Shown here: in pieces, positions 6,662 through 40,701 of the stretch
Position numbering within the stretch: position 1 is the first letter of the stretch
How the letters are laid out: the number at the start of each line of letters is the position of its first letter
IMG/VR virus record: IMGVR_UViG_3300020181_000001
Location: 1-60,099 of that record
Origin: a virus
Lineage: Duplodnaviria > Caudoviricetes
Length of the DNA: 60,099 nucleotides
Strand: one strand, 5' to 3'
The notes under the pieces: generated by a model
What the model saw: the letters and a program-made list of their open reading frames with translations, nothing else
What the model was told of the DNA's origin: nothing
Databases searched by the model: none
Program-made: the position numbers and the translations under genes

Positions 6662-6712
6662 ACCTTACGCTCAGATGGGCCACACGTCTAGAGGCTGTGA
6701 TCAGGTTGTTAC
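6662..6712 (-). promoter_or_regulatory. Promoter with upstream GTnAC-N6-GTnAC-type box
   Basis: GTAAC-AACCTG-ATCAC, 6 bp, TAGACG-17-TAAGGT. Confidence 0.7.
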
Positions 6713-7891
6713 TTACGGGTTGACAGCAGTTCCTCTGCCGTCGACACAGTTGGAGCAGTACCGGTAGTTGTTGCTCCACTGTGCCCAGCCCACACCAGAC
6801 GGGGTAGCAGTGGGACCATATTCAGTCCATCGGAACCGGTTGTTAATGGCCTTCATATTACTATAAACGCCACCACGGTTTTCTAAATAGAGGTTATAGC
6901 CCCCACCTTCAAGATAGTTGTCTTGGACTGTGCCGTTGTGGATATCAGACCAAGTGGGCTGAATGAACAGCGCACCACTTTGCCATCCATTGGTGTTCAC
7001 CGGAGTAGAGTCGAGTCTGTTGCCGATGAACTTCACTGTACGGGTGTTGGCCGCATTCTTGCGGAAATCCCGGATAGTCGCTCCGTCGTGATGAGCTTCT
7101 CCGGTGTGGCGCAGTCCGCGAACGTAATTGTTTTCTGCGTACGCGTCGTGCACTGTACCGGTCTCAAAGAAAGCAATACCCGAACCCATTCCATGCACAT
7201 AGTTGCGGTACAACTTTCCGACACCGATGAAACCGTCTGAACCTCCAAGGGCATTGTCTGCCGGAAGGCTCAGACCATTGATCTCAGAATCCTTGATGAC
7301 GACATTGCCAACTGATGTTGCTCTGCATCCACTCGTGCAGTCAGTAGTTGTCACCAGGTAGTCATTGTGCTCGCCTACTCTGGTCGGCTTGATGCAGGAC
7401 TGATCGATCGTAATGTCACCATTGTAGAGATTCAGCGGTACTGTAATTCTCTGCCGATAAATGACCGTACCTCGCGCCGGACGCTGAGGACCGGTATACG
7501 GCTGAAGCTGGTCACACACCAATCCGTGTGGGGCCAGACCGATGTTTTGTGCTGTCAGCTCCCACCCTTTCCGCACGCCCGTAACAGGAGGCTGTGTTGT
7601 GGTGGTGGTCGTCGGCACCGTGGTTGTAGTAGTCGTAGGAGACGCTGTAACGGTCTCAGTCTTCGTGTGAGTCACCGTACTCGGCGACGGCCACGTTAGC
7701 TGCTTACAGACCTTGTCAGCCCCGTCTACGAACTCTCCCTCAGGACACCACACACCACGGTCGCCCGGATTTGGCAGCACAGTTTGTGCTACTACCGGAG
7801 CAACAAAAAACCCCATCGGCAACAGCACTGAGGCTGCTACTAATGGGGCGAATCTCTTTACCTTTTCTCTGATCATCACTCTTCCTTTCAT
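6713..7891 (-). CDS. Secreted protein: signal peptide, Thr/Pro linker, probable right-handed beta-helix (pectin lyase-like) domain
   Basis: Basic-hydrophobic N-terminus ending VVAQ, TTTT linker, repeated IxxN/VxDN strands (ITIDQSCI, VIKDSEING, AENNYV, VQDNYL, AINNRF). Confidence 0.7.
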   Translation of the reverse strand: MKGRVMIREKVKRFAPLVAASVLLPMGFFVAPVVAQTVLPNPGDRGVWCPEGEFVDGADKVCKQLTWPSPSTVTHTKTETVTASPTTTTTTVPTTTTTTQPPVTGVRKGWELTAQNIGLAPHGLVCDQLQPYTGPQRPARGTVIYRQRITVPLNLYNGDITIDQSCIKPTRVGEHNDYLVTTTDCTSGCRATSVGNVVIKDSEINGLSLPADNALGGSDGFIGVGKLYRNYVHGMGSGIAFFETGTVHDAYAENNYVRGLRHTGEAHHDGATIRDFRKNAANTRTVKFIGNRLDSTPVNTNGWQSGALFIQPTWSDIHNGTVQDNYLEGGGYNLYLENRGGVYSNMKAINNRFRWTEYGPTATPSGVGWAQWSNNYRYCSNCVDGRGTAVNP

Positions 7892-7907
7892 TCAACATTT
7901 GGAAAGA

Positions 7908-7936
7908 CCCCCTCATGCACGGGAGACATGAGGGGG
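7908..7936 (-). terminator. Intrinsic terminator-like hairpin closing the RNA operon
   Basis: 10-bp stem CCCCCTCATG/CATGAGGGGG followed by TCTTT on the minus strand. Confidence 0.7.
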
Positions 7937-8197
7937 CCTGGTAAGCGAGGTGGTTGTTTCCAGGTCAGCCGTACACCGTGGTCCGGAACCGTGCCCTTAC
8001 CGCAACACCAATAACGGCCGTCACCGTTAAAGGAAAGGTTGCGACCCTTTCACCTCAAGCATTTAATTAGGTGTCCGCCTAAAACCACTTACGGACTCAC
8101 TCGCCCCTAGTGCTCTTCACGCCTATGCCGGAATCCGGGTGTTAATGTTTCCATCAACAGACGCTATACACTCGTGACCTATTACGAGCTTTCCCCT
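7937..8197 (-). ncRNA. Putative structured ncRNA downstream of tRNA-Asn
   Basis: No ORF of 60 aa or more; consecutive stems including TGTTGATG-GAAA-CATTAACA, CTCGT/ACGAG, GTCCG/CGGAC, CACCT/AGGTG, TAACGG/CCGTTA, CCTGG/CCAGG. Confidence 0.5.
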
Positions 8198-8199
8198 TG

Positions 8200-8272
8200 C
8201 TCCCACACCAGGGCTCGAACCTGGGACTTACGGATTAACAATCCGCTACTCTGCCAACTGAGTTATGTGGGA
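8200..8272 (-). tRNA. tRNA-Asn(GTT)
   Basis: TCCCACA/TGTGGGA acceptor, ACTC/GAGT D-stem, GCGGA-TT-GTT-AA-TCCGT anticodon arm, CCAGG-TTCGAGC-CCTGG T-arm, G73. Confidence 0.95.
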
Positions 8273-8278
8273 TTAGGC

Positions 8279-8364
8279 CCGGGTACCGACTCAAACGGTT
8301 GTAGTTGTCAGCTTTCTAGTTACAGCGCTTAACAACCAGCGGTCTTGTTGCGTTCCGCACCCGG
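8279..8364 (-). ncRNA. tRNA-like element A
   Basis: CCGGGT/ACCCGG closing stem, T-arm-like ACCG-TTTGAGT-CGGT and extra arms; no canonical anticodon arm. Confidence 0.5.
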
Positions 8365-8409
8365 TAGTTCCTCCTCTTCCGCGCAACCGAATCGGGAGAA
8401 ACCGTTTAG

Positions 8410-8481
8410 ATGGGGAGAGTAGCCCATATGTATACGCTACTGTTAAAGAGGTCTCTGCCTTACGGCCGTGAGTCTCCCCAT
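8410..8481 (-). ncRNA. tRNA-like cloverleaf element B
   Basis: 9-bp ATGGGGAGA/TCTCCCCAT stem enclosing GCC-GTAA-GGC, AGAG/CTCT and GTAGC/GCTAC arms; 72 nt. Confidence 0.55.
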
Positions 8482-8492
8482 TAAGTTATAGG

Positions 8493-8551
8493 TGGTCCAG
8501 TATCTCCCCCTGAACCAAGGGATTTCCAGGAGGTCTTAACCTGCATCTGGA
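8493..8551 (-). ncRNA. Mini tRNA-like element C with encoded CCA
   Basis: TCCAG/CTGGA stem followed by CCA; internal AGGT-TAAG-ACCT and CCCTTG/CAGGGG hairpins. Confidence 0.45.
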
Positions 8552-8555
8552 GGCG

Positions 8556-8624
8556 CACCAGGTGAAGGAATCGAACCCTCTCCTAAGACTTTGGAGGTCT
8601 CTTGGCTACCTTAGCCTACCTGAT
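8556..8624 (-). tRNA. tRNA-Trp(CCA), atypical short D-region
   Basis: ATCAGGT/ACCTGGT acceptor, GAGAC-CT-CCA-AA-GTCTT anticodon arm, GAGGG-TTCGATT-CCTTC T-arm, G73. Confidence 0.85.
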
Positions 8625-8928
8625 AGTGGATGCCACGCGTTATACCGCATCCTCTATGATCGTATCCCTTATTCTAAAAGTTCTCGGGTGATCACAGCTT
8701 TGCCGGGGGCTCTAGTCCCGGTATTTAGTTTTTGTTGAGGCTTGGTATCCGGTGGCCTCAGCCGGAACAACTTCACATCCGGAGTGGTGGTTTCTGCGCC
8801 CTTCCGGTGGGGCTAACCAGGGAGTCACTTTGGGGAGCGTTCCTGGCTGGGTCTTGTTTCAACCCTTTCCCTTACTCCTCCCGGTTCTCCATTAGGTGTC
8901 CGGGGCTTTGGGGGCTTGTTCTGTTGTA
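8625..8928 (-). ncRNA. Putative structured ncRNA or leader (hairpin series) at the 5' end of the RNA operon
   Basis: Stems CCCGG/CCGGG, CCAGG/CCTGG, CCGGA/TCCGG, TGAGGC/GCCTCA, CCGGG/CCCGG and GGATGC/GCATCC joined by A-rich linkers. Confidence 0.5.
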
Positions 8929-8934
8929 AGTACT

Positions 8935-8988
8935 AAGTTACAGCCTTCACACGTGGGTGTCAACCCCTTGAGGTAACGGAACAGTCTC
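8935..8988 (-). promoter_or_regulatory. Promoter of the RNA operon
   Basis: TTGACA-17-TAACTT, with GAGAC-N6-GTTAC 9 bp upstream of the -35. Confidence 0.8.
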
Positions 8989-9862
8989 AGTAGAGAACGA
9001 CCACGTCAAAGGCCAGGTCTGAGCTGTACGCCAGGTCAGTCTTGCCTGTGCCCGCCGGGATGTCGAACAGGCCGACACGGTCGTTCATGATGCGCTTCTC
9101 ACCAGGGTTGCCACCTGTGCCACCGGAGTTGCTCCAGTTGTACAGCGCGTGCACGGTGATGGTTGACCCTGCCGGAACGACCTGTAACTGACACTTCTTG
9201 TGCGCCGGGATGGCAATAGTGCGGGTCTGTGCCTTACCCGGGCCTAGCGTTACCTTCATAGCGGACATATCGTAATCCTCTTCTCCTGTCGGAACCGTTA
9301 CCGCGTTACCAGAAAGCTCTAGAATTCGAGCGATGTTCAACCTACCCGGGTCCCAATGGGAGTCCGGCGCTGATAGGTGCTGGTGTCCCAGGTGGCCAGA
9401 GAAATTCCGAAGCGCACCGGCAGACAGCCGAATGGGGGAGCTGGGTGACGCAAGAATGATCCCCTCTCCCTCCCCATAGAAGCGGAGGAAGTTATTCGGT
9501 ACACCTACAGCATCTCGAATAGGCTTGACTACGTTATCAGCCAGCCACCTCAGCACCCACTCAGGCCACGTGTGGGACGCACCTGCAAATCCAACAATTT
9601 CAACCTGAATGATATGATCATCATCATTGTTGTCCATTGCGGAATAGGCAGCCAGATCAAGTGAAATGTGCTGAAGCTTTTCACCTGACCAAGGATTAGC
9701 GATTAGGTGCGGAGGATAAGACGCATACGCACCTAAAGCCCCGCTGACACTTCCACCTTCTGTGGTGTGCCAACAGAGCTTAGGCTTGTCCATGTATTGA
9801 AATGGGTAGCCGGTCCTACCTGGAAAAACATGGCGTGTATATCCCGGTAACCAGATTGCCAT
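8987..9862 (-). CDS. Endolysin, N-acetylmuramoyl-L-alanine amidase with C-terminal putative cell-wall-binding domain
   Basis: WHTTEG, PHL, IQVEIVG and GHQH...HWDPG Zn-amidase motifs; probable start MAIWLPG at 9862. Confidence 0.85.
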   Translation of the reverse strand: MAIWLPGYTRHVFPGRTGYPFQYMDKPKLCWHTTEGGSVSGALGAYASYPPHLIANPWSGEKLQHISLDLAAYSAMDNNDDDHIIQVEIVGFAGASHTWPEWVLRWLADNVVKPIRDAVGVPNNFLRFYGEGEGIILASPSSPIRLSAGALRNFSGHLGHQHLSAPDSHWDPGRLNIARILELSGNAVTVPTGEEDYDMSAMKVTLGPGKAQTRTIAIPAHKKCQLQVVPAGSTITVHALYNWSNSGGTGGNPGEKRIMNDRVGLFDIPAGTGKTDLAYSSDLAFDVVVLY

Positions 9863-9864
9863 TC

Positions 9865-10257
9865 TCACCACCGTTCCATTGTGCCCCCGTTTTCTGTGGT
9901 ATATACGGCTGTCCGGATGCCAGCGTTGGTCAACGCGGTCCAGCACGAATCACACGGGCGACTCAACCGGAGTGTACCACGTCCAGCCACACGGGCTACA
10001 TACACGACTGCTTTTCGCAAGTCAACCCACTCAGACTGTCTGATCACAGAGCGGAGAGCGACCATCTCAGCGTGCCGGGAGCAGTGATCGTACTCGTGTA
10101 TGAACTTCGGGTGATTACGGAACTTATTGGTTCCCAATGCAAGTACTGAGTTCCTGACTACGATCACTGCTCCATGGCGCTGACGACAAACAGAGTCAAG
10201 AGCGAGCTTAGCGGCCAGATCCAGCCAACTTTGATGCCTTCTGCTTAAGGTCATCAA
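9865..10257 (-). CDS. Zn-dependent cytidine/dCMP deaminase-fold protein
   Basis: HGAVIV, HAE and PCxxC (PCDSC) motifs. Confidence 0.85.
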   Translation of the reverse strand: MMTLSRRHQSWLDLAAKLALDSVCRQRHGAVIVVRNSVLALGTNKFRNHPKFIHEYDHCSRHAEMVALRSVIRQSEWVDLRKAVVYVARVAGRGTLRLSRPCDSCWTALTNAGIRTAVYTTENGGTMERW

Positions 10258-10486
10258 TCGTCTCCTCTAGCTGCTTTCGTGCTTTCAGCTGATTGATCAG
10301 CTTCATCGTCTGCTTGATGTGCTTGGAGAAGGCAACCAGCACCTGCCTGCCGTCTGTCTCCTCCCTCTGCTTGTGCTCCAAGAGGAACGCGGAGTGAGAC
10401 AGGAACTCACAGAGACCCTTTGCTTGAGGCCCTGAGATGTACCGGTCAGCTACCTCACGGAAAGCCTTGTCCTGTTTAGTGGTCAC
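10208..10486 (-). CDS. Hypothetical protein
   Basis: GTGA overlap with the upstream gene, AGGAG RBS. Confidence 0.6.
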   Translation of the reverse strand: MTTKQDKAFREVADRYISGPQAKGLCEFLSHSAFLLEHKQREETDGRQVLVAFSKHIKQTMKLINQLKARKQLEETIDDLKQKASKLAGSGR

Positions 10487-10938
10487 TTTTCAACTCCTGT
10501 CGGCAGTTCTAGAACGTGCTTATACAAATCGACTGAGAGCCATTTCTCGAACGTCTGATAAATGGTATCTCGCAACTCGGGTAGCGTCTCGGCAACGAAC
10601 ATGATATTACGAATCTCTTGAGCGAAAGCCCACACACCCAACTGAGTGCGGTCTCCAATCTGTGTCTTGTTACCGACCCGCTGAAGGTGACTCTTGACCG
10701 TACACTCAGAGATGAACAGCTCTTTACCGATTTCTTTGTTGGTCATCCCCAGAGCGACAAGCCGGAGAATCTGCCTCTCGCGAGGTGTCAACGGCTTACC
10801 GTAGGGTGCCGTCTCCTTCATCCGCTGATTGAAGGTCTTGATTCGGCGATTGACCATAGTAGCTACCTTTGTTGGTTTTTGAATTGATCGATCAGGGCCA
10901 GAGTGAGAGTCAACATAGCAAGGGGGCCAACGATCCAT
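10483..10938 (-). CDS. LuxR/GerE-family HTH transcription regulator (no receiver domain)
   Basis: LTPRERQILRLVALGMTNKEIGKELFISECTVKSHLQRV; real start may be the internal MVNRR. Confidence 0.9.
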   Translation of the reverse strand: MDRWPPCYVDSHSGPDRSIQKPTKVATMVNRRIKTFNQRMKETAPYGKPLTPRERQILRLVALGMTNKEIGKELFISECTVKSHLQRVGNKTQIGDRTQLGVWAFAQEIRNIMFVAETLPELRDTIYQTFEKWLSVDLYKHVLELPTGVEK

Positions 10939-11017
10939 TGAGGGCCGGTAAGGCTCTCTGTGCCATCATCTACCATAAAGAATACCATGGCACAGAAGAG
11001 CCCTACCAACAACATCG

Positions 11018-11383
11018 TCAGCCTGCCTTACGAGTGGTGTGGTTCCGACCGGACTTCGCAGCGCCCTTGACGTTCAGCTTGGGCGCGTGCGGGACGAGGT
11101 GCTTCACCGCGAGGTTGACCGGGCGTTTGGTGGCCTTCTCCGTCGACACCAGAAAGTAGTCTGCGACACTGAGGCCCAGAGCCTTTGCCTTCCGCAGCTC
11201 CACAACCTTCATTCCCCGGTTCTCACGGTCGGGTGACTGCACCACCTTCACGAGCCGAACCATTGCATCCTTGTCAGCGCGAGACCGCACGTGGGCGGTG
11301 TAGTTGTCGAACGCGCCGGAGAGGGAGGACGGACCAGTGACGGTCTGGTACTTGCGGTTGATGAAGAGCTGAACGGCGTACAT
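11018..11383 (-). CDS. Hypothetical basic protein
   Basis: GGGAGATC RBS before MYAVQL at 11383; own promoter. Confidence 0.65.
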   Translation of the reverse strand: MYAVQLFINRKYQTVTGPSSLSGAFDNYTAHVRSRADKDAMVRLVKVVQSPDRENRGMKVVELRKAKALGLSVADYFLVSTEKATKRPVNLAVKHLVPHAPKLNVKGAAKSGRNHTTRKAG

Positions 11384-11421
11384 GATGATCTCCCGTGTTT
11401 TAGAAGCTTTTGTATGAACTG

Positions 11422-11472
11422 ACACTAACATGGGGTCCGCTTCACAGCCAGCCCGTGTTATCGAGTTGTTAC
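11422..11472 (-). promoter_or_regulatory. Promoter with GTnAC-type box
   Basis: GTAAC-AACTCG-ATAAC, 6 bp, TGGCTG-17-TAGTGT. Confidence 0.65.
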
Positions 11473-11630
11473 GCGCTGAACTTCTGATTGTAAAAGACTG
11501 CTCCCGCTTCAGCCTCTTCCTGGGTGCATCCACGAACCCAGTAAAGCTCGCGCTGAGCGTCATAAACCGACCAGTCACCGTGCACGTGGTGGGGCTTGGC
11601 CGAAAATCGCTCTTCCGTGGTAGTTTCCAT
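11469..11630 (-). CDS. Small hypothetical protein (53 aa, not in ORF track)
   Basis: GAGGAGATCGAA-ATG; METTTEERFSAKPHHVHGDWSVYD...FSA; own promoter. Confidence 0.7.
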   Translation of the reverse strand: METTTEERFSAKPHHVHGDWSVYDAQRELYWVRGCTQEEAEAGAVFYNQKFSA

Positions 11631-11660
11631 TTCGATCTCCTCTGTCGTGGTGATGTGAGA

Positions 11661-11711
11661 ACCCTAACCCACACCACCACGACATCACAAGGTCTGTTAC
11701 CTAACCGTGAC
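11661..11711 (-). promoter_or_regulatory. Promoter with GTnAC box
   Basis: GTCAC-GGTTAG-GTAAC, 5 bp, TTGTGA-18-TAGGGT. Confidence 0.75.
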
Positions 11712-11715
11712 TAAC

Positions 11716-12468
11716 TCAGGGGCACGACTGGAGCAGAGCCCCGTCCACCTTGGCGAAATATAGGGCGTGACCTGCATTGTTACCGTGGATGTCATCCGGC
11801 AGGTACGCACGGCTGTAGGTGTCCGGGCCGGTCTGGGGGAACGCCGGAACCATGTCTACCCAGCACGCTCCCTTGGCCTGAGCAGCCTCGAACATCTTGG
11901 CCGTGTAGTCAGCCTGCGTGTAGGTGCCCTGGTTGAAAACGTGATACCAGAGCTTAGGCGGATTCACGATCATGAACTGAGTGTTGGGTGATGTCGTCCG
12001 AATCTCAGTCATGAGTGCATCAAGGTCGGTCTTGAGCTGTGTGGGTGTCTTCCCGTTTAGCTGCTCGTTGGCACGCCAGTCCATCAGCACGAGGTCCGGC
12101 TGAAGGGCCTTTACCTGCTGAGTAACCGAGTACTGGTTACCGCCTGGAAGGAACTGACTGGCCATTGTAGACCCAACGGCATGCAAAGTTACCGACCAGT
12201 TGCGAGCTGCTCCGGCTGACTGAAGCAGACGCGGAAACGACCGTGATACCGGAGTGTTGGTGTCGGCACCCGCTCGGTACTCGGTAAAGATCGAGTCACC
12301 CATAATCGCGATCTTCTTTGCCGTGCCCGCCGGAATAGGCCCACACGTGCCAGCCTGCATTGACGATGACATGTTTTTGTGCTCATTGATCTCACGTGCA
12401 CCTGCAAATCCTCCAGCAATAAGAGAAAAAGCAGCCACGCCGATTACAATATCCCGCTTAACACTCAT
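11716..12468 (-). CDS. Exported SGNH/GDSL hydrolase (esterase/deacetylase family)
   Basis: N-terminal hydrophobic signal or anchor; GDSI, AVGS, RANE and DDIHGN blocks. Confidence 0.9.
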   Translation of the reverse strand: MSVKRDIVIGVAAFSLIAGGFAGAREINEHKNMSSSMQAGTCGPIPAGTAKKIAIMGDSIFTEYRAGADTNTPVSRSFPRLLQSAGAARNWSVTLHAVGSTMASQFLPGGNQYSVTQQVKALQPDLVLMDWRANEQLNGKTPTQLKTDLDALMTEIRTTSPNTQFMIVNPPKLWYHVFNQGTYTQADYTAKMFEAAQAKGACWVDMVPAFPQTGPDTYSRAYLPDDIHGNNAGHALYFAKVDGALLQSCP

Positions 12469-13124
12469 CAGAACAACCTAGCTCCCTCGAACGCCTTAGC
12501 GTCTACCCCGTAGTTGATCCATGTTGCACCCATGTTCTTAGCACACGCATCTGCCGTGCGCTCCAAACCTCCGTACGGAGCCAATGCCGTCACAGCGGCT
12601 TTATAACCCCCGAACACACGTCCCTGACGAACGTGGCACGATTCGTGAAGCATGACTGAAGCCAGCGCGTAAAGAGGAGTGCGCCTGGCGATCCACACGT
12701 TACCCGTGTCCGGAGCGGCGGCACCCCATGAGCCCTTGTCACCGATGTGCCAGTTACCCGGCAGCGTCGCGGAGAGACGGTTGTACGTCTCCATCCACGG
12801 ATCTCCCACAGGCTTCGGAGGGGCCGGAACAGGCTGAGTCTTCACTGGCGCTGGCTTTGCAGGCTGAGGAGTAACCTGTGTGGTCGTACGTGTGGCCTCG
12901 GCTTGGCGCTTCTGCTGGGCTGCCTGCTGTTCGGCATGCGCGCGCTCTTGATCCTTTTGTGTCTTGATCTGCACAGCCCAGCGTGCGTGATGATCAACAG
13001 CTTCACGGTGGTTGAGGTCGCGCGGGTCTGCTGCGTCCACCTTACCGGACCACTCGATCTTGGCGGATGTTCCACACGCTACCGCGCTGGCTAGGATGAC
13101 AGTTGCGATGATGATGTTTTTCAT
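12468..13124 (-). CDS. Lipoprotein with Pro-rich linker and HExxH zincin-like domain
   Basis: Lipobox ...SAVA-C; MLHESCH...LERTAD; ATG 7 nt after the -10 (probably leaderless). Confidence 0.75.
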   Translation of the reverse strand: MKNIIIATVILASAVACGTSAKIEWSGKVDAADPRDLNHREAVDHHARWAVQIKTQKDQERAHAEQQAAQQKRQAEATRTTTQVTPQPAKPAPVKTQPVPAPPKPVGDPWMETYNRLSATLPGNWHIGDKGSWGAAAPDTGNVWIARRTPLYALASVMLHESCHVRQGRVFGGYKAAVTALAPYGGLERTADACAKNMGATWINYGVDAKAFEGARLF

Positions 13125-13131
13125 GCTGCCT

Positions 13132-13180
13132 ATCTTACAGCTTGGTCCCCCAGACGCAAGCTACGTTACCGAGTTGTTAC
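13132..13180 (-). promoter_or_regulatory. Promoter with GTnAC box
   Basis: GTAAC-AACTCG-GTAAC, 5 bp, TTGCGT-16-TAAGAT. Confidence 0.75.
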
Positions 13181-13235
13181 TGAACAAACCAAAAACACCG
13201 ATCTCCGCAGTCCTCATCACAGTCACCACATGCTT

Positions 13236-14453: not shown

Positions 14454-14497
14454 TATTAGGCCTTATCTGTGCTTTAGAATGATCAGCCTTTCTCGCG

Positions 14498-14526
14498 AGT
14501 GTACGCGTCGATCGTTTAGGTGTCAA
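14498..14526 (-). promoter_or_regulatory. Consensus promoter
   Basis: TTGACA-17-TACACT. Confidence 0.75.
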
Positions 14527-16838: not shown

Positions 16839-16839
16839 A

Positions 16840-18621: not shown

Positions 18622-18693
18622 CAGGTCCCTTTCTAACGTGGTACTGGGCAGTGCGGAGGTTTATGGTAGCACCTACAGACACCGCAGTAAATG

Positions 18694-31958: not shown

Positions 31959-31997
31959 TAATCTGGTACACTGGATCAACTGACCTGAGGAGGCCAG

Positions 31998-32399: not shown

Positions 32400-32530
32400 T
32401 GAAAAGCTAGAAGCTATTAAAACCATTTTAGACCCTGATGGGGATGGAGTCTATGTCTTTGACGATCCGTATACAGGGGATGCAGGCCGTATTGAGCAAG
32501 TTTGTGAGCTACTTGGTTTGAGGACAGCTA

Positions 32531-33037: not shown

Positions 33038-33183
33038 TGACAGAGCCACGCCCTGATCCTGCAAAGGAGCCTGAAGCTTATCTAGCATGGTGTAAGAAGA
33101 TGTTTCATGGTGATTGGTGGGGTACAGGCCGCTGTGAATGTGGAACCTGTTGCGGAGTCTTAGGATGTGACACATGCGCATGA
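33037..33183 (+). CDS. Cys-rich microprotein (48 aa)
   Basis: TAATG coupling; ...CECGTCCGVLGCDTCA. Confidence 0.5.
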   Translation: MTEPRPDPAKEPEAYLAWCKKMFHGDWWGTGRCECGTCCGVLGCDTCA

Positions 33184-35717
33184 ACCCACACGTAGAGCTT
33201 GCCGTGCGGAACGTCGGATGTGTCGCCTGCAAGCTTCACCGACAGGCTGACGATGACGACCGTTGCGTGACGGCCGTAGGCAACCACAAGGCAGACATCC
33301 TCATTGTTTCCAAGAACCCGTTGGGGGACAAGGGACTCAAGGAGATTTCCACCTACCTTGAGCGTGCCGGATTCGACGTGTCTCGTCTCGCGTTCACGGC
33401 TGCTCTCAAGTGTCGCGTGTGGGACATGGAAGGTAAGAAGACCGAGCAGAAGGCGTGTAAGACTTACCTGACAAAGGAAATTGAGTTCATCCGTCCTAAG
33501 TGGATTCTAACACTGGGCAATGAGGCGATGTTTGCTGCCACAGGTAAGTCAGGGATCATGAAGCATCGCGGAGCGTCCATTAAGGTCGGTGACGCTACCG
33601 TTATCCCGACGATCGCCCCAAGCATGATCTACCGTAACCCCGGTATGAAGGAAGGCTTTGAGGCTGATCTAAGGTACTTCCACCGTGTAGCCATGGGCTT
33701 GCCGGATGACCCGATGAACACACCACCGAAGTCAGTCTTTGTGACCACACAGGACAGACTCAAGGCGATGCTACGTCACATGCAAAAGGCTGTGCATTGT
33801 AGCTATGACTTGGAAACGTCCGGCTTTGACGAGTTCAGGCCGAACTCTCTCGGCGATGATCCCATGATCATTACGGCTGCCTTCACTCTATGGTCCAAAG
33901 AGGACATGAGTGACGCGGTTTGTTACGGAGTTCCACTGGCTCATCCCAATAGTCCCTTTAGGACAGTCTGGCACACGGTCTTCGGCTGGATTGCCAAGGT
34001 CCTTGTCAAAGTCAAGAAAACCATTGCCCATAATGGAAAGTTCGATAACAGGTGGTTACGTCAGTTCGGATACCGTGTCCGGCTCTCCTTTGACACCATG
34101 CTTGCCGCTCACCTGTTGAATGAGAACAGGCCCAAAGGCCTGAAACCGTTGGCACAACAGGAGTTAGGCGTTGAGCCGTGGGCTATGGATGTCCAGGGTG
34201 ATGGCTGGTACTACACGGCCAAGCTTCGGGACACCCTGTGGTACAACATGCTGGACACTTGGCACGCGGGCCGGTTGTACGCCTACAGGTTACGCCAGGG
34301 CTTGTTGGACAAGCCGAGACTAGCCAGGCTCTACCTCAACGTCACCATGCCCCTGAGCGAATCCCTGACAGACGCGGAACGTGCGGGCGCATGGGTGGAC
34401 AGACCTCTGTTGTATCAACGTTGGGACGAAGCCAAAGCCAAGCTCGAAACCCTTGACCTTGAACTGATGCAGTATGTGCCGGAACAGAAGTATTGGCCTA
34501 AGGGCATCAAGGAAGTCAACTTTGGACGCTCTAACTTTCTTCTATGGCTGCTGTTTGATGAGCTTGAACTACCGGTCATCGCGCGCGGAGAAGCCAAAGA
34601 GGACGGTTCTCCTGGTGACCCTTCAGTAAGTTCTGACTGTCTTGCTCAGATGTGGACAGAAAGCGAACATCCGATCATCCCTCTGCTTCAAGAGCGCTCT
34701 AAGTGGCAGAAGTACGAGAGTGCGTTTCTCGCGTCCTATGTGGAATTGATCGATGAGAATGACCGGCTCCACACGACATACAAGATCGCGGGTACCTCAA
34801 CCGGTCGGACAGCATCGGGTAAGGCTGATGCGGAGAAAGTCACTGGTGTCAAACAGATTCGTGGTGTGAACCTTCAACAGGTTCCACGTGACTCGTTCAT
34901 CAAAGGGATCTTCGGTGCACCGGATGAGTGGTTCTGGGTTGAGGCTGACTACTCCCAGATTGAGCTGAGGATTGCTGCGTTCCTCGCGCAAGAGTCCACA
35001 ATGCTCAGTTACTACAACAACGGTGTAGACGTCCACACACAAATGGCCATGCGCATCACAGGCTTGAAGCGTAAGGACATCACAGCACACCACCGGACAA
35101 TGGCCAAGTCAGTCAACTTCGGCTTCTTGTTCGGCATGGGTTGGCTGAAGTACATTGAAACCGCGCGCAAGAACTACGGAGTAATTGTCAATGAATCTGA
35201 AGCTAGGGCCTTTAGGACAGCTTTCTTTGCGGAGTTCCCACTACTCCTTAAGTGGCACAACAAACAGCGAAAGTTGGCGCGTGAGTTTAAACGTGTGGAG
35301 TCGCCCCTCGGAAGGATTCGGCATCTCCCAGACGTTGACTCGCCCAAAGACGATGTACGTGCTGAGGCTGAGCGTCAAGCCATCAACAGTCCCGTTCAAG
35401 CAATGGCTTCAGACATGGCACTGTGGGCGCTCACGCTCATCGACCAAGAGTTCAAGCGCCTCAAGTTGAAGAGCCACATCATTGGTGGTGTGCACGACTC
35501 CATCAACCTCGAACTGTGGCGTCCGGAAATGGGTATCGCTCTTCCCATTATCAAAGACACAATGGAGAACCTGCCTCTAGCGGAGAAGTTTGGTGTGAAC
35601 CTGAACGTACCGATCATCGCGGATGTGAAGGCCGGAAAGCGTTGGGGCGAAGCTAAAGAGCTTGACGTCTCACAGATTTATGAGTGGAAGGATGGTTACG
35701 CAGATGCGCTTGTCTGA
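33174..35717 (+). CDS. polA: Family A DNA polymerase with N-terminal family-4 uracil-DNA glycosylase-like domain (SPO1-type)
   Basis: CxxCxL...KCR...C Fe-S UDG fold; exonuclease DLET, HNGKFD, YNMLD; polymerase ADYSQIELR, RTMAKSVNFG, VHDS. Confidence 0.95.
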   Translation: MRMNPHVELAVRNVGCVACKLHRQADDDDRCVTAVGNHKADILIVSKNPLGDKGLKEISTYLERAGFDVSRLAFTAALKCRVWDMEGKKTEQKACKTYLTKEIEFIRPKWILTLGNEAMFAATGKSGIMKHRGASIKVGDATVIPTIAPSMIYRNPGMKEGFEADLRYFHRVAMGLPDDPMNTPPKSVFVTTQDRLKAMLRHMQKAVHCSYDLETSGFDEFRPNSLGDDPMIITAAFTLWSKEDMSDAVCYGVPLAHPNSPFRTVWHTVFGWIAKVLVKVKKTIAHNGKFDNRWLRQFGYRVRLSFDTMLAAHLLNENRPKGLKPLAQQELGVEPWAMDVQGDGWYYTAKLRDTLWYNMLDTWHAGRLYAYRLRQGLLDKPRLARLYLNVTMPLSESLTDAERAGAWVDRPLLYQRWDEAKAKLETLDLELMQYVPEQKYWPKGIKEVNFGRSNFLLWLLFDELELPVIARGEAKEDGSPGDPSVSSDCLAQMWTESEHPIIPLLQERSKWQKYESAFLASYVELIDENDRLHTTYKIAGTSTGRTASGKADAEKVTGVKQIRGVNLQQVPRDSFIKGIFGAPDEWFWVEADYSQIELRIAAFLAQESTMLSYYNNGVDVHTQMAMRITGLKRKDITAHHRTMAKSVNFGFLFGMGWLKYIETARKNYGVIVNESEARAFRTAFFAEFPLLLKWHNKQRKLAREFKRVESPLGRIRHLPDVDSPKDDVRAEAERQAINSPVQAMASDMALWALTLIDQEFKRLKLKSHIIGGVHDSINLELWRPEMGIALPIIKDTMENLPLAEKFGVNLNVPIIADVKAGKRWGEAKELDVSQIYEWKDGYADALV

Positions 35718-36153
35718 TGTAGCTATTATGAACGCAAAACCTGAACATATGTACCGTTTATTGTCCCGTTCAATTCACGACCCTGTCTCTGGTTGTGTTC
35801 AATTTCAAGGGTACCGAGATAAAGACGGTTATGCAACGGTAACTGTAAATGGCCGTTCAATCAGAGCTATTAGAATGGTTCTTTGGTTTAAAACACAGAA
35901 ATTGGAGCAAGTTGCACGCCACACTTGTGACAATCCCTGCTGCGTAAATAGAGAGCATCTAGTATGGGGTGAGCCCAAAAATAATTCTGAAGACATGGTT
36001 TCTCGGGATCGACATAGTAACGGAAATAGAGAAAAGAAGGTATGTAAACGAGGGCATTCTTTAACTCTTCTCCGCACTGGGAAACGGACTTGTAGGACAT
36101 GTAACAAAGAACGAGAACGGACTAGGAGAAAAAATGCCCGCACTGTATCTTGA
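35704..36153 (+). CDS. HNH endonuclease with C-terminal Zn finger
   Basis: RHTCDNPCCVNREHL...N..DM; CKRGH...CRTC. Confidence 0.88.
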   Translation: MRLSDVAIMNAKPEHMYRLLSRSIHDPVSGCVQFQGYRDKDGYATVTVNGRSIRAIRMVLWFKTQKLEQVARHTCDNPCCVNREHLVWGEPKNNSEDMVSRDRHSNGNREKKVCKRGHSLTLLRTGKRTCRTCNKERERTRRKNARTVS

Positions 36154-37189
36154 TGGAGATGGAAAGAGCATCCACACTAATTCAATGTTAAAATGCTTCA
36201 GGCGTTGCCCACGACAAGCACTTTACACTTACCATGACAGACTAAAGCCATTAGAAACGTCAAAGCCTTTACGCCGGGGCGTTTGGATGCACGCGCTCTT
36301 GGAGGCACACTACAAGGGAGAAGACTGGCGCAAAGTACACGCACACTTCACACTCAAGTTCGGTGAGTTGTTCGATGAAGAGAAAGAGAAGCTGGGAGAC
36401 TTACCGAACGAATGTCTAGGCCTTATGGAATCCTATCTCTGGCACTACGCCAATGATGATTGGAAGGTCCATGAGGTTGAGTTCTCCATGGATTGGGAGA
36501 TGCCTGATGGGAAGATCCTCCGAGGAAAAGCAGACATGCTCATTGAAGACCGATTCGGTCTGTGGCTTGTCGACCACAAGACGCACAAAACGTTACCTGA
36601 CTTTACTAATCGGGTACAAGACCCACAATCGGCTATTTACATGTACTTGGCAGAAAAGAACAAAATTCCCGTACAGGGTTTTATCTGGAACTACATTCGT
36701 ACTAAAGGCCTCACTGAACCTCAAATGCTTAAAGATGGGTCCCGTCTTAGTAAATCTGCGATTGATACCGATTACCTCACATACGCACGTGCTATCAAAC
36801 GGTACCAAGGTGCTCATAACCTCACCCTCACGCCAGAGATCAAAGAGAAATTGAGGTACTTGAAGTCTCTGCGCTATGTGCCGGATGAGCCTCAGCTGTC
36901 CACGTTCTTCCGCAGGGAGACGATCGAGAAGAATCCTGACATGCTCAAGCGTGCCATTGCGGAAAACTGGCACACAATGAAGCGCATGGAGAAATACAAT
37001 TTCGAGCAGCGTGACGCGGTGGAGCGAGTCTATGACAACTCGTGCAACTGGATGTGTAGCCACAAGCGGTTGTGTGGGGTAGAATTAACAGGAGGGAACG
37101 CAGAGCAAGTCATCCGGCAAGGTTACCGTGTGGGTGACGTGCTGGACTACTACGAAGACAAAAAGGATCGATCGGAGACAGGCTTTTAA
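36134..37189 (+). CDS. PD-(D/E)XK Cas4/RecB-like exonuclease
   Basis: FRRCPR, G..MH..LE, GKADML...VDHKT, Q.AIY, CNWMCSH..LC. Confidence 0.88.
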   Translation: MPALYLDGDGKSIHTNSMLKCFRRCPRQALYTYHDRLKPLETSKPLRRGVWMHALLEAHYKGEDWRKVHAHFTLKFGELFDEEKEKLGDLPNECLGLMESYLWHYANDDWKVHEVEFSMDWEMPDGKILRGKADMLIEDRFGLWLVDHKTHKTLPDFTNRVQDPQSAIYMYLAEKNKIPVQGFIWNYIRTKGLTEPQMLKDGSRLSKSAIDTDYLTYARAIKRYQGAHNLTLTPEIKEKLRYLKSLRYVPDEPQLSTFFRRETIEKNPDMLKRAIAENWHTMKRMEKYNFEQRDAVERVYDNSCNWMCSHKRLCGVELTGGNAEQVIRQGYRVGDVLDYYEDKKDRSETGF

Positions 37190-37368
37190 TGTGTGACTGT
37201 GAAGGCTGTCTTAGTGGAGGTATGTGTTTAAAGATGATGTGCACGCGCTGTACCCAGGACAAGTTCTGTAACAATTGTTTTCAGTTCATGAAGTTGATGT
37301 TGAAGATGCAATTCAACTCACCTCAGAATATGCCGAAACCTCAGCCCGTAGTAAATGAGGGGTTCTAG
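37189..37368 (+). CDS. Cys-rich microprotein (59 aa)
   Basis: TAATG/TAGTG coupling at both ends; MCDCEGC...C...CTRC...CNNC. Confidence 0.6.
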   Translation: MCDCEGCLSGGMCLKMMCTRCTQDKFCNNCFQFMKLMLKMQFNSPQNMPKPQPVVNEGF

Positions 37369-38081
37369 TGCGCGTAATTCCCATTGCGGAAACCAAGCTA
37401 ATTGAGCTTACTGAGCTGGGGAATCCAAATATTGGTGATTGGATGGAACTTGATTTAGGAAAATCATCTGACGCTGAACTCTTGACTGAGTTCGCGGGAC
37501 GGTCATGCTATGAATCATGGAACAAACCGAATGCTGCCACACGGACAAATGCCGACTACAACAAGCACATCATTGAGGTTGGTCATTTTTCCGTACTTGA
37601 ACATGCATCCATCACTTTCTACATTCGCGATGTGTCCCGTAGCCTTACACACGAACTGGTTCGTCATCGTCACTTTGCATATTCTCAACGTTCGCAGAGA
37701 TATGCAGATGAATCAGCGAACATGATTGTACTACCTCCTGATGTCAAGAAAAGCAACCGGGCACAACACATCTTGAACGCATTGGATGCACGGGCTAAGG
37801 CTGCTTACCAGGAGCTAGCTGAGATCATGCGCCTTGAGCTAGGACTATCACGCAAGCGTGCTCGATCAGCCGCCCGTGCTGCTTTACTGGGTTCACAGAG
37901 CACGGCCATTGTCGTTACTGGTAATCACAGGGCATGGCGTGAGTTCATGAGCAAGCGGAATGACCCAGCAGCCGATGAGGAAATCCATGATCTAGCCGTC
38001 GCTATTCTACAGGTGTTGAAAGAACGCTACCCCTCACTTTATGCAGATATGGGTAATGGTGGAACACCTGAAGGACATTGA
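37368..38081 (+). CDS. thyX: Flavin-dependent thymidylate synthase
   Basis: EFAGRSCY, GH.SVLEH, HELVRHRHFAYSQRSQRY signature. Confidence 0.96.
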   Translation: MRVIPIAETKLIELTELGNPNIGDWMELDLGKSSDAELLTEFAGRSCYESWNKPNAATRTNADYNKHIIEVGHFSVLEHASITFYIRDVSRSLTHELVRHRHFAYSQRSQRYADESANMIVLPPDVKKSNRAQHILNALDARAKAAYQELAEIMRLELGLSRKRARSAARAALLGSQSTAIVVTGNHRAWREFMSKRNDPAADEEIHDLAVAILQVLKERYPSLYADMGNGGTPEGH

Positions 38082-38135
38082 CCATCGGATCACGATCTGG
38101 TAACATTGGAGGGCTAAGTGTGATCGGAGGTCCAT

Positions 38136-38975
38136 ATGGCGACAACAGCGACGAAGGACTATTCTAAAATCGCTGCTGGTAAAATCCGGCGACCGTCTGA
38201 GGTGAAGCGTCCATTACGGATCTTCATTTACAGCCGGAACAAGAAGGGCAAAAGTACCTTCTGTCTGAGTGCGGGAGTACCAAATATTGAGGATGTGCTA
38301 TTCCTTGACCCTGAGGGCGGCACAGATCAGTTTACCAAGCAAGACCCCAAAGTGTGGCCCATTGAAAAATGGGAAGACATTGATGACGCTTACAAGTACA
38401 TCAGGTCAGGGAAGCACAATTACAAATGGATTGCTATTGACGGGCTGACTAAAATTGGAACCATGGCCGTCCGTTGGGTAGTCAATCAAGAGGAAGAACG
38501 GGATCTCACTAGACGACCGAACAAAGTCTCTCTTCCCAATTACGGTGATGCCGCGAAGATGATGGAAGCTATGTTGTTCAACTTCCACAATCTTCCTTAC
38601 GGAATTATCCTCACCTCACAGGAAAGAATGGTCTCAGGTAATGAGGCGGGGGACGAGGACGAAGACGCTGAAGACTCAGCCGTCTATTACGTCCCCGATC
38701 TACAACGCGGTGTGCGAGCAGCAGTCAACTCAATGGTTGACGTCATCGGCCGTCTCTACGTCGTCAATGCTCAAGTCAAGGTGCGCAATGCCAAGACTCA
38801 AGAGATTGAGGAAGTAGAGCGTCCACAGAGACGCCTATGGATTGCTCCACACCCCGCGTACGACACAGGTTTCCGCAGTGAGATGGGTTCCAAGATGCCC
38901 AAGTATCTGAAGAATCCGACTGTTCCCAGGCTTCTTGAATTGATCGAAAATGGAAAGGTTGCTCGAAATGGCTGA
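38136..38975 (+). CDS. Sak4-like AAA ATPase (ssDNA annealing/recombination)
   Basis: YSRNKKGKST P-loop, LDPEGG, IAIDG, DVIGRL; upstream TTGACC-17-TAACAT; located between exonuclease and SSB. Confidence 0.8.
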   Translation: MATTATKDYSKIAAGKIRRPSEVKRPLRIFIYSRNKKGKSTFCLSAGVPNIEDVLFLDPEGGTDQFTKQDPKVWPIEKWEDIDDAYKYIRSGKHNYKWIAIDGLTKIGTMAVRWVVNQEEERDLTRRPNKVSLPNYGDAAKMMEAMLFNFHNLPYGIILTSQERMVSGNEAGDEDEDAEDSAVYYVPDLQRGVRAAVNSMVDVIGRLYVVNAQVKVRNAKTQEIEEVERPQRRLWIAPHPAYDTGFRSEMGSKMPKYLKNPTVPRLLELIENGKVARNG

Positions 38976-39573
38976 GCAGGTTACCGCACGTACTCTTGAC
39001 TTCACCAACGTCAAAGAGGGCTCTGACATCCGGCCAAAGCGCAAGCTTGCCGGAGAGTATCTCGCCACTGTTGCGAGCGTAACAGAGAACGAATCCAAGG
39101 CCGGTAATGCTCAATGGGTATTCGTGGTCAAGTTAGTGGATGACCCGTCTGCCACTTACCCGGTTTACTGCACGCTGAACGATGAAGCCCTTTGGAAGCT
39201 TCGTGCCTTCATCATGGCGTGTGGAGCCAACGTGCAAAAGAAGCGTATCAAGATCGACCCGAACAAGTTCGTCGGTCGTCAGCTAGGTGTCATCCTGGAA
39301 GATGACGAGTACGACGGTAAGGAGAAGTCTACTGTCCAAGGCTTCATTCCGAAGTCTGAGCTTGCCAGCAGTTCTCCTCAGGGTATGGACGACGATGAGG
39401 AAGAGGACGAAGACGCGGTAGAAGAGGCTCCTCCTGCCCGTAAGACTCCCGCCAAGAAGGCTGCTCCGGCAAAGAAGACTCCGGCCAAGCGGAAGCCTGT
39501 TGAGGTGGAAGAGGACGAAGAGGACGAGGTTGACGAGGAAGAGCTAGATGAGCTTGACCTTGATGAACTGTGA
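38968..39573 (+). CDS. ssDNA-binding protein (DUF669-like) with acidic tail
   Basis: GEY.ATV...ESKAGN...ALWKL..F; long D/E tail. Confidence 0.75.
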   Translation: MAEQVTARTLDFTNVKEGSDIRPKRKLAGEYLATVASVTENESKAGNAQWVFVVKLVDDPSATYPVYCTLNDEALWKLRAFIMACGANVQKKRIKIDPNKFVGRQLGVILEDDEYDGKEKSTVQGFIPKSELASSSPQGMDDDEEEDEDAVEEAPPARKTPAKKAAPAKKTPAKRKPVEVEEDEEDEVDEEELDELDLDEL

Positions 39574-39710
39574 GTGTAGACTGAGAAGCATGTCCTAGCG
39601 GCACACCGTTAGGCGCGAGAGGCCCTGTAAGCCTGCGTACTGACTCCCACTCGGGGTGGAGCCTGGTCCGTGACTTACGGGGCTTTCTCGTATCCACACA
39701 AAGGGGAGTT

Positions 39711-40118
39711 ATGGGAAAGCAACCTGAAGCGCAGTTATCTGAAAATATTACTAAAGCTCTCAAAAAAGAAGCCAAGAAGCGTGGGCATGAGCTGTTCATC
39801 TTCAAGGTGCATGGGCATGACCAACAGATGTCCGGCGTACCTGATTTGCTCGCGTGCTACCGGGGCCGGTTCATCGGGCTTGAGGTGAAGATGCCTGGTA
39901 ATCATCCTAGCCCACGACAGATTTATGTCATGGATCGTATAGCCTGGGCTGGTGGTATCGTACTAGTGCCGTACAGCGTCTCAGAGGCTCTAGACTGCCT
40001 GGACCTGGTGGACGGACTCATTGACGGTCCCAAGGTCTTACAGAGCAAATCAGGACCCTGCAAGACAGGTGCTCAACACGGCTACATCGGTCGTCTTCCT
40101 GATTGCCAGCACGACTAA
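39711..40118 (+). CDS. VRR-NUC domain nuclease/resolvase
   Basis: GVPDLL...GRFIGLEVK.PG...S..Q. Confidence 0.88.
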   Translation: MGKQPEAQLSENITKALKKEAKKRGHELFIFKVHGHDQQMSGVPDLLACYRGRFIGLEVKMPGNHPSPRQIYVMDRIAWAGGIVLVPYSVSEALDCLDLVDGLIDGPKVLQSKSGPCKTGAQHGYIGRLPDCQHD

Positions 40119-40131
40119 CCAGCACAACGCA

Positions 40132-40171
40132 AATCCCCCGACACAGAGTCTTAGCCATGTGCCGGGGGATT
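40132..40171. terminator. Bidirectional terminator between the convergent arms
   Basis: AATCCCCCG...CGGGGGATT inverted repeat. Confidence 0.75.
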
Positions 40172-40186
40172 CGTCTATTCAGTTAG

Positions 40187-40618
40187 TCAGTGAAGGGCAC
40201 TGATGACTTCAACTGCTCCCCACACGACAGAGCCAGCAGCTGTTCCCCCAATGGCGAGCAGAAGAATCGCGATGACACCACAACCCTTTTTCTTCTGCTG
40301 TGCTTTGCTGATCTTCTGAACGTTCTTATTGCCCTTGAGGAGTTTTTCGGCCTCAGCCTTCTTGCCCTTTTTGTGAAGCTTTTTGCCTTTCTCAATCACA
40401 CGCATGGCATCATCCATGTCGATGCGGTCCTTCAATGCCTCTTCAGCTTCCTTCTGGAACTTAGCGACTTCAGATGCGCGAAGCCCAAGAACTTCAAACG
40501 TTTCAAACATCAAACTATCGTCAACCTGCTGGTCGTTCAGATCACGCTCGCGCGCTTCCTCCTCAGCAGCTTCACGCGCCATGCGCTTTTTCCACTCTTC
40601 TTCATCGAACTTAGCCAT
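40187..40618 (-). CDS. Charged protein with C-terminal membrane anchor
   Basis: GGGAGG RBS; KKKGCGVIAILLLAIG. Confidence 0.7.
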   Translation of the reverse strand: MAKFDEEEWKKRMAREAAEEEARERDLNDQQVDDSLMFETFEVLGLRASEVAKFQKEAEEALKDRIDMDDAMRVIEKGKKLHKKGKKAEAEKLLKGNKNVQKISKAQQKKKGCGVIAILLLAIGGTAAGSVVWGAVEVISALH

Positions 40619-40651
40619 TTCAACCTCCCGTGTTGTGGCCTTACGAGAACT

Positions 40652-40701
40652 ACGTTAGCACCCGAACAACACCATGTCCAGGTTAGTCACCCGATCGGAC
40701 G
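40652..40701 (-). promoter_or_regulatory. Promoter with a GTnAC half-site
   Basis: GTGAC, 5 bp, TGGACA-17-TAACGT. Confidence 0.65.

Follow-up and report, generated by a model that had tools for sequence, protein, structure and literature searches.

We analysed the complete virus record IMGVR_UViG_3300020181_000001 of IMG/VR, a window of 60,099 bp with direct terminal repeats and a GC content of ~52%, and found that nine predicted promoters of its accessory arm share a 16-bp box. The arm runs on the minus strand from 26,874 to 1 and holds chiefly small open reading frames (ORFs) without family match, plus four tRNAs. The box is a direct repeat of two RTNAC half-sites separated by 6 bp, and its nine copies (6697, 11457, 11696, 13165, 20667, 21036, 21261, 21573 and 25936) lie on the minus strand, the same strand as the downstream genes. 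The conservation and spacing described below indicate that the box is very probably a protein-binding regulatory element. We tentatively propose a response regulator of the host as its reader.

The pattern RTNAC-N6-RTNAC had 22 strand-specific matches at 19 loci in the window, compared with 7.51 +/- 3.20 expected from 100 shuffles (maximum 20). With up to one mismatch to RTAAC-N6-RTAAC, 24 matches were found where 8.01 +/- 2.58 were expected, and five of the six exact matches to this narrower form lay on the minus strand and were intergenic. When gaps of 0-20 bp were scanned, the gap of 6 bp alone stood out. Fifteen of its 22 matches fell in intergenic DNA (binomial P = 1.4e-9), which, taken with 10 bp added, makes up 12.2% of the window, and the other gaps gave 1-18 matches each, with 0-3 of them intergenic. 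The enrichment and the fixed spacing put forward in a preliminary description of this DNA were thus confirmed on intergenic DNA, and the excess over coding DNA is found at this gap only.

A position weight matrix (PWM) built from the nine sites scored them at 20.9-30.6, and the next best place on both strands (120 kb) reached 14.3. In leave-one-out scoring, eight of the nine sites obtained 11.4-23.5, compared with a 99.99th percentile of 10.6, and the site at 21573 obtained only 0.4. The letters T2, A4 and C5 of both half-sites were invariant in the nine boxes, as was the G right before the second half. The consensus can be written as RTAAC(A/G)nn-tnG-RTAAC(A/G), with A at position 3 in 14 of the 18 half-sites. 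The second half-sites read GTAAC four times, ATAAC twice, and ATCAC, GTTAC and GTCAC once each. The strict composite TAACR-N4-G-RTAACR-N26-28-TANNNT was found four times in the window, with 0.01 expected. Dyad enumeration recovered TAAC-N7-TAAC (six of seven matches intergenic), without strength after multiple testing. A de novo expectation-maximization run overfitted low-information motifs and was replaced by targeted motif tests, and a generic scan for sigma-70 promoters and terminators gave the same counts as shuffled DNA.

The promoters given in Table 1 were predicted from sequence alone. Eight boxes ended 5-6 bp before a -35-like hexamer, and at eight box promoters a -10 hexamer of the form TAnnnT lay 16-18 bp past the -35. 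Measured from the end of the box, the TAnnnT hexamer followed after 29 nt at six sites, 28 nt at one, 27 nt at one and 39 nt at 21573. The box at 21573 ended 16 bp before its -35 hexamer and was displaced outward by one helical turn; the canonical proximal position was occupied, in 11-bp phase, by ATGTT, a degenerate third half-site. The -35 hexamers and their distances from the box agreed with the preliminary description at all nine sites. The same description had set non-consensus -35 hexamers with a box against consensus promoters without one, and both parts of this contrast held. The -35 hexamers of all nine box promoters matched TTGACA at 3-5 of 6 positions, TTGTGA and TGGACA each being used twice. 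None of the four perfect TTGACA-17-TAnnnT promoters on the minus strand (3875, 8963, 14526 and 41625) carried the box, which was thus restricted to weak -35 hexamers.

Downstream of each box promoter, at 30-65 nt, came an ORF that has a ribosome-binding site, with the exception of the promoter at 13165. Its -10 hexamer TAAGAT (13132-13137) sits 7 nt ahead of the ATG at 13124 (gene 12468-13124, minus strand), an arrangement of the leaderless-mRNA type. Leaderless mRNAs are common in Actinobacteria.

Table 1. Coordinates of box promoters, further pattern matches and the helix-turn-helix (HTH) protein of the accessory arm in the 60,099-bp window
Feature	Position	Strand	Box	-35	-10	Downstream genes and remarks
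Box promoter 1	25901-25951	-	25936-25951 GTAACGGTTGGGTCAC	TGGTGA 25924-25929	TAGGGT 25901-25906	Heads operon from 25880/25856 to 22778
Box promoter 2	21528-21588	-	21573-21588 ATAACATGGTGGTAAC	TTGTGC 21551-21556 (16 bp on)	TATGGT 21528-21533	ATGTT degenerate half-site 5 bp before -35; first ORF start 21485 (70 aa)
Box promoter 3	21226-21276	-	21261-21276 ATAACAAAGAGGTAAC	TTGTGA 21249-21254	TAGGGT 21226-21231	First ORF 19 aa (21195)
Box promoter 4	21002-21051	-	21036-21051 ATAACAACTCGATAAC	TGGACA 21025-21030	TAAGGT 21002-21007	First ORF 84 aa (20936)
Box promoter 5	20632-20682	-	20667-20682 ATAACAGTTAGGTTAC	TGGACA 20655-20660	TACTGT 20632-20637	Small Cys-rich ORF (start 20589), then tRNA-Gly, tRNA-Leu
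Box promoter 6	13132-13180	-	13165-13180 GTAACAACTCGGTAAC	TTGCGT 13154-13159	TAAGAT 13132-13137	Upstream of 12468-13124 (weak metallopeptidase-like match) and GDSL hydrolase gene 11716-12468
Box promoter 7	11661-11711	-	11696-11711 GTCACGGTTAGGTAAC	TTGTGA 11685-11690	TAGGGT 11661-11666	First ORF 53 aa (11630)
Box promoter 8	11422-11472	-	11457-11472 GTAACAACTCGATAAC	TGGCTG 11445-11450	TAGTGT 11422-11427	ORF start 11383 (121 aa), then strong hairpin, then LuxR-type gene 10483-10938
Box promoter 9	6662-6712	-	6697-6712 GTAACAACCTGATCAC	TAGACG 6685-6690	TAAGGT 6662-6667	First ORF start 6630
Plus-strand match	19999-20014	+	19999-20014			Perfect RTAAC-N6-RTAAC, opposite orientation to the genes of the arm; left out of the regulon
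Candidate extra site	38089-38104	+	38089-38104			PWM 12.3; overlaps spacer and -10 of TTGACC-17-TAACAT before gene 38136-38975
NarL/FixJ (GerE) type HTH protein	10483-10938	-				151 aa, stand-alone, HTH residues 49-108, no receiver domain

Three of the promoters shared a 43-nt module of -10 and leader (11626-11668, 21191-21233 and 21493-21535, minus strand), with 60-81% identity to the reference copy. The other six had no extended similarity outside the box, the -35 and the -10. Because the promoters are unlike outside these elements, save for the three that share the module, the box has been kept in at least seven independent promoter contexts. The module itself runs from the -10 via a GGTTCTTATATCAGCAAGACAGAGGAG-like leader to an ATGGA start, and its leader contains the imperfect palindrome TCTT-N8-AAGA. 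One copy precedes a 19-aa ORF (21195-21136).

Most box promoters also have an inverted repeat of their own, unrelated to the others, over the -35 or the -10 (6662-6690, 11661-11690, 13132-13160, 20632-20662, 21002-21032 and 21226-21256, minus strand). Examples are TGTGGCCCA..TGGGCCACA around the -10 of the promoter at 6697 and GGGGGC..GCCCCC around the -35 of the promoter at 21261. These repeats probably serve the upstream transcripts as terminators or processing hairpins and have been packed into the promoter that follows. They vary in position and the box does not, so the box is tied to the promoter and not to the hairpins.

About 13 box promoters had been listed in the preliminary description, of which the nine minus-strand sites between 6.7 and 26 kb were retained and four were dropped. 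At 8973 the pattern is matched on neither strand; the minus strand reads GAGAC-N6-GTTAC, with one mismatch, ahead of a perfect TTGACA. The matches at 19999 and 22558 are on the plus strand only and are therefore inverted with respect to a minus-strand promoter, and 40686 is a single half-site. The window contains 165 one-mismatch matches, which places the four dropped sites at noise level. The candidate extra site at 38089-38104 in the replication arm may lie in a repressing position if it is bound, or may be a chance match, as it is a single site.

Winged-helix proteins of the OmpR/PhoB type bind head-to-tail, classically to a phased direct repeat in one orientation that abuts a weak -35. The nine aligned boxes, with half-sites 11 bp apart from centre to centre, and the enrichment of the 6-bp gap correspond to this kind of direct repeat. 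The half-site core (GTnAC or RTAAC(A)) and the location upstream of the predicted -35 on a fixed helical face are those of sites of the MtrA/AfsQ1 kind. The MtrA consensus of Corynebacterium glutamicum, (A/G)TAACAATttn(A/G)TAACAAT, is an 8-bp direct repeat with a 3-bp linker and is termed 'loosely conserved'; at promoters activated by MtrA the sites lie upstream of the -35, at repressed ones near the -10 (PMC3353115). The activating position that the preliminary description had assigned to the box agrees with this rule. In Streptomyces coelicolor the MtrA site reads (G/T)T(G/A)ACC-N5-GT(G/T)ACN, and the version of C. glutamicum is A/T-biased while that of Mycobacterium tuberculosis is G/C-biased (PMC5650626). 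A motif GTCACAgcg was reported for M. tuberculosis (PMC2945938). Like the phage boxes, MtrA sites are direct repeats of 11-bp period, located upstream of the -35 where the regulator activates, with a core of RTAAC(A) in C. glutamicum or GTnAC(C) in Streptomyces. The first repeat in four of the phage boxes, RTAACAAC, is identical to RTAACAAT at seven of eight positions. However, the second repeat of the phage boxes departs from AAT at positions 6-8, and the known MtrA targets are chromosomal genes of osmoprotection and the cell wall, whereas the boxes here are on nine phage promoters.

AfsQ1 is known mainly from Streptomyces. Its site, GTnAC-n6-GTnAC, coincides exactly with the pattern that was first read from this DNA, and MtrA also binds GlnR boxes, for which it competes (PMC6988585). 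In the activation complex of GlnR, OmpR/PhoB-family domains are arranged head-to-tail around the -35 and touch sigma-A region 4, the beta flap and alpha; in the GlnR box an a site, gTnAc, is combined with GaAAC, the b site, and two such boxes of 22 bp, four sites in all, are usual (PMC10235972). The phage half-sites resemble the a site, but both half-sites of a box are of this type. None of the nine second half-sites reads GAAAC, and there are two half-sites per promoter, not four (with the degenerate third at 21573), which makes a GlnR-like reader less likely. The PHO box of actinobacterial PhoP consists of 11-nt direct repeat units with GTTCACC (PMC6988585); it also fits less well, as none of the 18 half-sites reads GTTCACC. 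Of the actinobacterial OmpR-family sites named in the preliminary description, those of AfsQ1 and MtrA share the shape of 11-bp repeats with the boxes, and that of GlnR fits poorly.

From these features we infer protein binding, activation and a host-encoded, MtrA-like reader, with decreasing confidence. Given its position and the weak -35 hexamers, the box is likely to activate. A six-frame search for the OmpR-type DNA-binding domain PF00486 was empty for the complete 60,099-bp record, which confirmed the earlier statement that the phage has no OmpR-type gene. The explanation that we prefer, although it stays short of probable, is that the reader is a response regulator of the OmpR/PhoB family and MtrA/AfsQ1 type supplied by the host. 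MtrA comes first among the candidates, since it is described in the literature as a system conserved in actinobacteria. A single transcription factor would bind the nine boxes as a head-to-tail dimer, each RT(A)AC half-site being one helical turn from the other. It would span roughly -57 to -39 (estimated from the -10), directly upstream of the sub-optimal -35, and would assist the host's sigma-A RNA polymerase in initiating transcription of the accessory-arm operons. The arm would then be expressed in step with the phosphorylation of a two-component system of the host, one that reports on the envelope, on osmotic conditions or on the cell cycle. As binding by a host regulator is predicted from sequence only, the coupling to nitrogen or envelope state suggested in the preliminary description is a conjecture that depends on it.

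The most specific form of this proposal is rather unlikely, namely that a soil actinophage, itself probably lytic, has wired nine accessory-arm promoters, including those of a putative peptidase/esterase operon and of its own LuxR-type regulator, to host MtrA. If it were true, the phage would adjust a third of its genome, in timing or in scale, to the growth and envelope state of the host, and the four-box array at 20.6-21.6 kb could also draw MtrA from host cell-wall genes. An actinophage regulon gated by a response regulator would thereby be described for the first time.

For cyanophages (PhoB) and phi29/Nf (Spo0A), action of host response regulators on phage promoters is already established, so the principle is not new; the known cases of phages that read their hosts in this way are few. 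Host PhoB shifts promoter DNA of cyanophage S-PM2d in electrophoretic mobility shift assays (PMC10976474). The cyanophage Pho boxes are comparable to the boxes described here in that phage promoters carry direct-repeat sites for a host regulator of the OmpR/PhoB family, which couples expression to host physiology. They differ in host phylum and regulator and are looser, and binding and regulation were measured there, whereas the boxes here come from sequence. Spo0A binds sites in phi29/Nf (PMC2731898). Here also, sites for a host response regulator are spread over phage promoters and decide the course of infection. In contrast to the activation suggested by the position of our boxes, Spo0A represses transcription and blocks replication; it is not of the OmpR type and uses single 0A boxes. 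In one narrow full-text search, which is no proof of absence, none of the papers listed was, judged by title or abstract opening, about MtrA-type sites on phage promoters. If an MtrA-type regulator reads the boxes, phages of actinobacteria and a regulator linked to cell division and envelope stress join these cases. The nine natural promoter variants, each of ~50 bp with box, weak -35 and -10, would then serve for studying OmpR-type activation in Actinobacteria.

Several results weigh against a host regulator of the MtrA type. Compared with the full 19-bp MtrA consensus of C. glutamicum, itself described as loosely conserved, the boxes matched at 11-13 of 16 positions, which is not above background, and places with at least 12 of 16 matches numbered 13 in the window compared with 9.1 +/- 3.0 in Markov shuffles. 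What the boxes have in common with MtrA sites is the RTAAC(A/G) core, the phasing and the position, and no more. No excess of the 6-bp gap was found in three IMG/VR phages (45-47% capsid identity, GC 56-60%), in the first 50 kb of Wollypog or in Muddy, so this group of phages does not as a rule make use of a host regulator that is universally available. The conservation in related phages that had been named as a check was not seen, all of these relatives and other actinophages being too distant for footprinting. The strict composite of box and -10 was not enriched in 401 sampled Actinomycetota genomes (12 of them unpublished, no taxon labels), with 12 places compared with 10 for the reversed control. 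The cyanophage study itself calls sequence-based Pho box prediction in the genomes of phages unreliable (PMC10976474). Finally, a Pfam scan of 60 distinct ORFs of the phage left most of them without family match, and a phage-encoded reader could hide among these.

Further comparisons gave little more. In the three IMG/VR phages, Wollypog (first 50 kb) and Muddy, composites of box and -10 were found at one or two chance-level places at most, and direct-repeat periodicity in the relatives was dominated by codon periodicity. The exact 15-mer of a box was found in 92 contigs of IMG/VR with one match each, which is the chance level, and no contig had several copies. The excess of RTAAC-N6-RTAAC in the 401 Actinomycetota genomes is partly a word of 16S rRNA. 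Among the 12 composite places in these genomes, three have three or four TAAC(A/G) half-sites in 11-bp phase (L137, G168:C46; L140, G329:C11; and G047), and two genomes share one conserved site (L134/L135 in G117 and G145) upstream of a 424-aa ORF. These phased places are likely to be chromosomal response-regulator boxes of the same grammar, which says nothing on the host of this phage.

It is also possible, though we hold it with some doubt, that an activator encoded by the phage and made from the box-less consensus promoters binds the direct repeat and switches on the nine weak -35 promoters as an early-to-middle switch. The reader would then be an ORFan or the GerE-type protein of 10483-10938. 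The lambda CII repeat TTGC-N6-TTGC and the T4 MotA boxes are sites of phage-encoded activators at a poor -35. As in the present case, a short box at or near a poor -35 defines a class of phage promoters, and the gap of the CII site is also 6 bp; by contrast, the CII and MotA boxes overlap the -35 or stand in its place, and the phage proteins that read them are known, whereas none has been identified here. The absence of the regulon from the relatives and actinophages examined, and of several boxes from any other contig, fits a regulon private to this phage. Two promoter classes, one with perfect -35 and no box and one with weak -35 and box, are expected of a phage-timed cascade. A hidden DNA-binding protein is plausible, as most ORFs of the arm have no family match, and an HTH regulator in a box-driven operon of the arm would permit positive feedback.

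However, a six-frame search of the phage also found no HTH_3, HTH_17 or WhiB domain. The only recognisable candidates for transcription factors are the GerE-type HTH protein and an Lsr2-domain protein, apart from a weak MarR-like stretch of the phage primase in the family scan. The description of the protein at 10483-10938 as LuxR-like was borne out by its match to GerE (PF00196, E 5e-18) and by its best solved relatives, the DNA-binding domains of LiaR, NarL and VraR. Proteins of the NarL/GerE family usually bind inverted repeats as symmetric dimers. Exceptions exist, and lambda CII is a phage HTH protein that binds a 4-N6-4 direct repeat. The gene belongs to the operon of box promoter 8 and is separated from the box-8 transcript by a hairpin of -43 kcal/mol, and no box-less promoter was seen for it, which speaks against this reading. 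The hairpin (10945-11010, minus strand; stem ~22 bp, -43.3 kcal/mol, z -6.5, no U-tail) stands between the ORF 11383-11018 and the LuxR-type gene, which has no obvious Shine-Dalgarno sequence, and may be an element of processing, stability or translational control. The second reader named in the preliminary description, a winged HTH protein at 26251-26874 (207 aa), could not be upheld. It had no family match and no homologue in 5.8 billion proteins, and its AlphaFold2 model (pLDDT 37) gave no usable fold. The match of half-site and geometry to a known host regulator family would be a coincidence if an unrelated phage protein were the reader. If a phage protein does read the boxes, they define a class of middle promoters and give a handle on a new activator among the ORFans. 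With either reader the regulon is clean and can be tested with synthetic DNA, although phage and host are uncultured.

We consider it quite improbable that the boxes bind a regulator, from host or phage, in order to repress the accessory arm at some stage or to titrate a host regulator during phage replication. Four boxes within 1 kb (20667-21588) in front of ORFs of 19-84 aa look more like a binding array, the copy number of the sites climbs with replication, and Spo0A sites of phi29 repress. The extra site at 38089-38104 overlaps a -10 in the replication arm. But the location upstream of the -35 is the activating position of C. glutamicum MtrA, which represses from near the -10 (PMC3353115). 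The link to weak -35 hexamers and the fixed helical phase fit recruitment of polymerase, and a sink needs no fixed distance.

The least probable reading, with a very small chance, is that no dedicated protein is involved and the box is an intrinsic upstream promoter element (a UP-like contact or a bend) or a relic of duplication, since the box does lie at the place contacted by the C-terminal domain of the alpha subunit and three of the nine promoters are paralogous through the 43-nt module, but the six dissimilar promoters preserve, in each half, T2, A4 and C5, together with the G that precedes the second half, the conserved letters form a phased direct repeat and not an A/T tract, and the 6-bp gap alone is enriched.

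The sequencing runs in which the phage occurs are of soil metagenome DNA. Four such runs were compared over 6500-26400, and one of them holds a variant strain, ~1.5% diverged, with 329 differences. In the region ~21012-21600, which includes three boxes, the variant has two substitutions, both outside the boxes; this is expected by chance alone in ~70% of cases and is no test of conservation. The variant strain (run X4) follows the window as far as 25897, a little downstream of the -10 hexamer in box promoter 1, and continues with unrelated sequence. Position 25897 is a mosaic junction at a promoter boundary.

The genome is composed of three blocks, a plan that is the same in Mycobacterium phage Muddy. 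The minus-strand block from 60,099 to 40,187 contains structural and lysis genes, including the capsid protein, a 932-aa ORF and a holin (41917-42237). The replication arm on the plus strand (27,030-40,118) encodes a RepB-primase/AAA_25 protein, an SNF2 helicase, a family-A polymerase, a PD-(D/E)XK nuclease, a MazG-like protein and a dCMP deaminase, and the accessory arm forms the third block. The direct terminal repeat is exact and 127 bp long (1-127 and 59973-60099). No tyrosine integrase was found in six frames, and the phage is therefore probably lytic.

The capsid protein was 42% identical to capsids of Arthrobacter, Microbacterium, Mycobacterium and Gordonia phages, with 47% as the best identity in IMG/VR, and PolA was 47% identical to PolA of Streptomyces phages. 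Atlas taxa place the context of the phage at phylum level only, and host searches point only to Actinomycetota. The actinobacterial context follows from the capsid and PolA relatives in actinophages, the Lsr2 DNA-binding domain and the Atlas taxa. A megablast search of 20000-27000 against 50,697 phage records gave no match, and of two accessory-arm proteins searched in IMG/VR, one had no match and the other a single match confined to the HTH. By these sequence comparisons the phage is an actinophage without close relatives. Its family-A DNA polymerase (33174-35717, plus strand) has an N-terminal domain of the uracil-DNA-glycosylase superfamily (PF03167, residues 58-160), followed by 3'-5' exonuclease and polymerase domains.

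A glycoside hydrolase of the GHL15 family is encoded at 17335-18621 (minus strand). It had no match in the 50,697 phage records; among genome contigs it matched only chromosomal genes of Allokutzneria (48-49% identity), and among metagenome contigs one bacterial-like contig of 2 kb. Together with the GDSL/SGNH hydrolase encoded at 11716-12468 (minus strand), it is probably a cell-envelope enzyme acquired from actinobacteria. The Lsr2 DNA-binding domain (PF23359, E 3e-15) is located at the C-terminus of a 263-aa protein (40782-41573, minus strand), whose gene is driven by a predicted perfect TTGACA-17-TAACAT promoter without box (about 41597-41625, minus strand). The Lsr2 family is typical of actinobacteria and their phages, and from its domain match the protein looks like a phage-borne Lsr2-like nucleoid or silencing protein. 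In the control region where the accessory and replication arms diverge (26875-27029), a canonical -10 at the usual spacing was not found. The region contains three 10-mers with GTCAA/TTGAC, CTGTCAATGG, CCGTCAAGGA and, on the other strand, CTGTCAAGTG, which are possibly an operator set for another factor.

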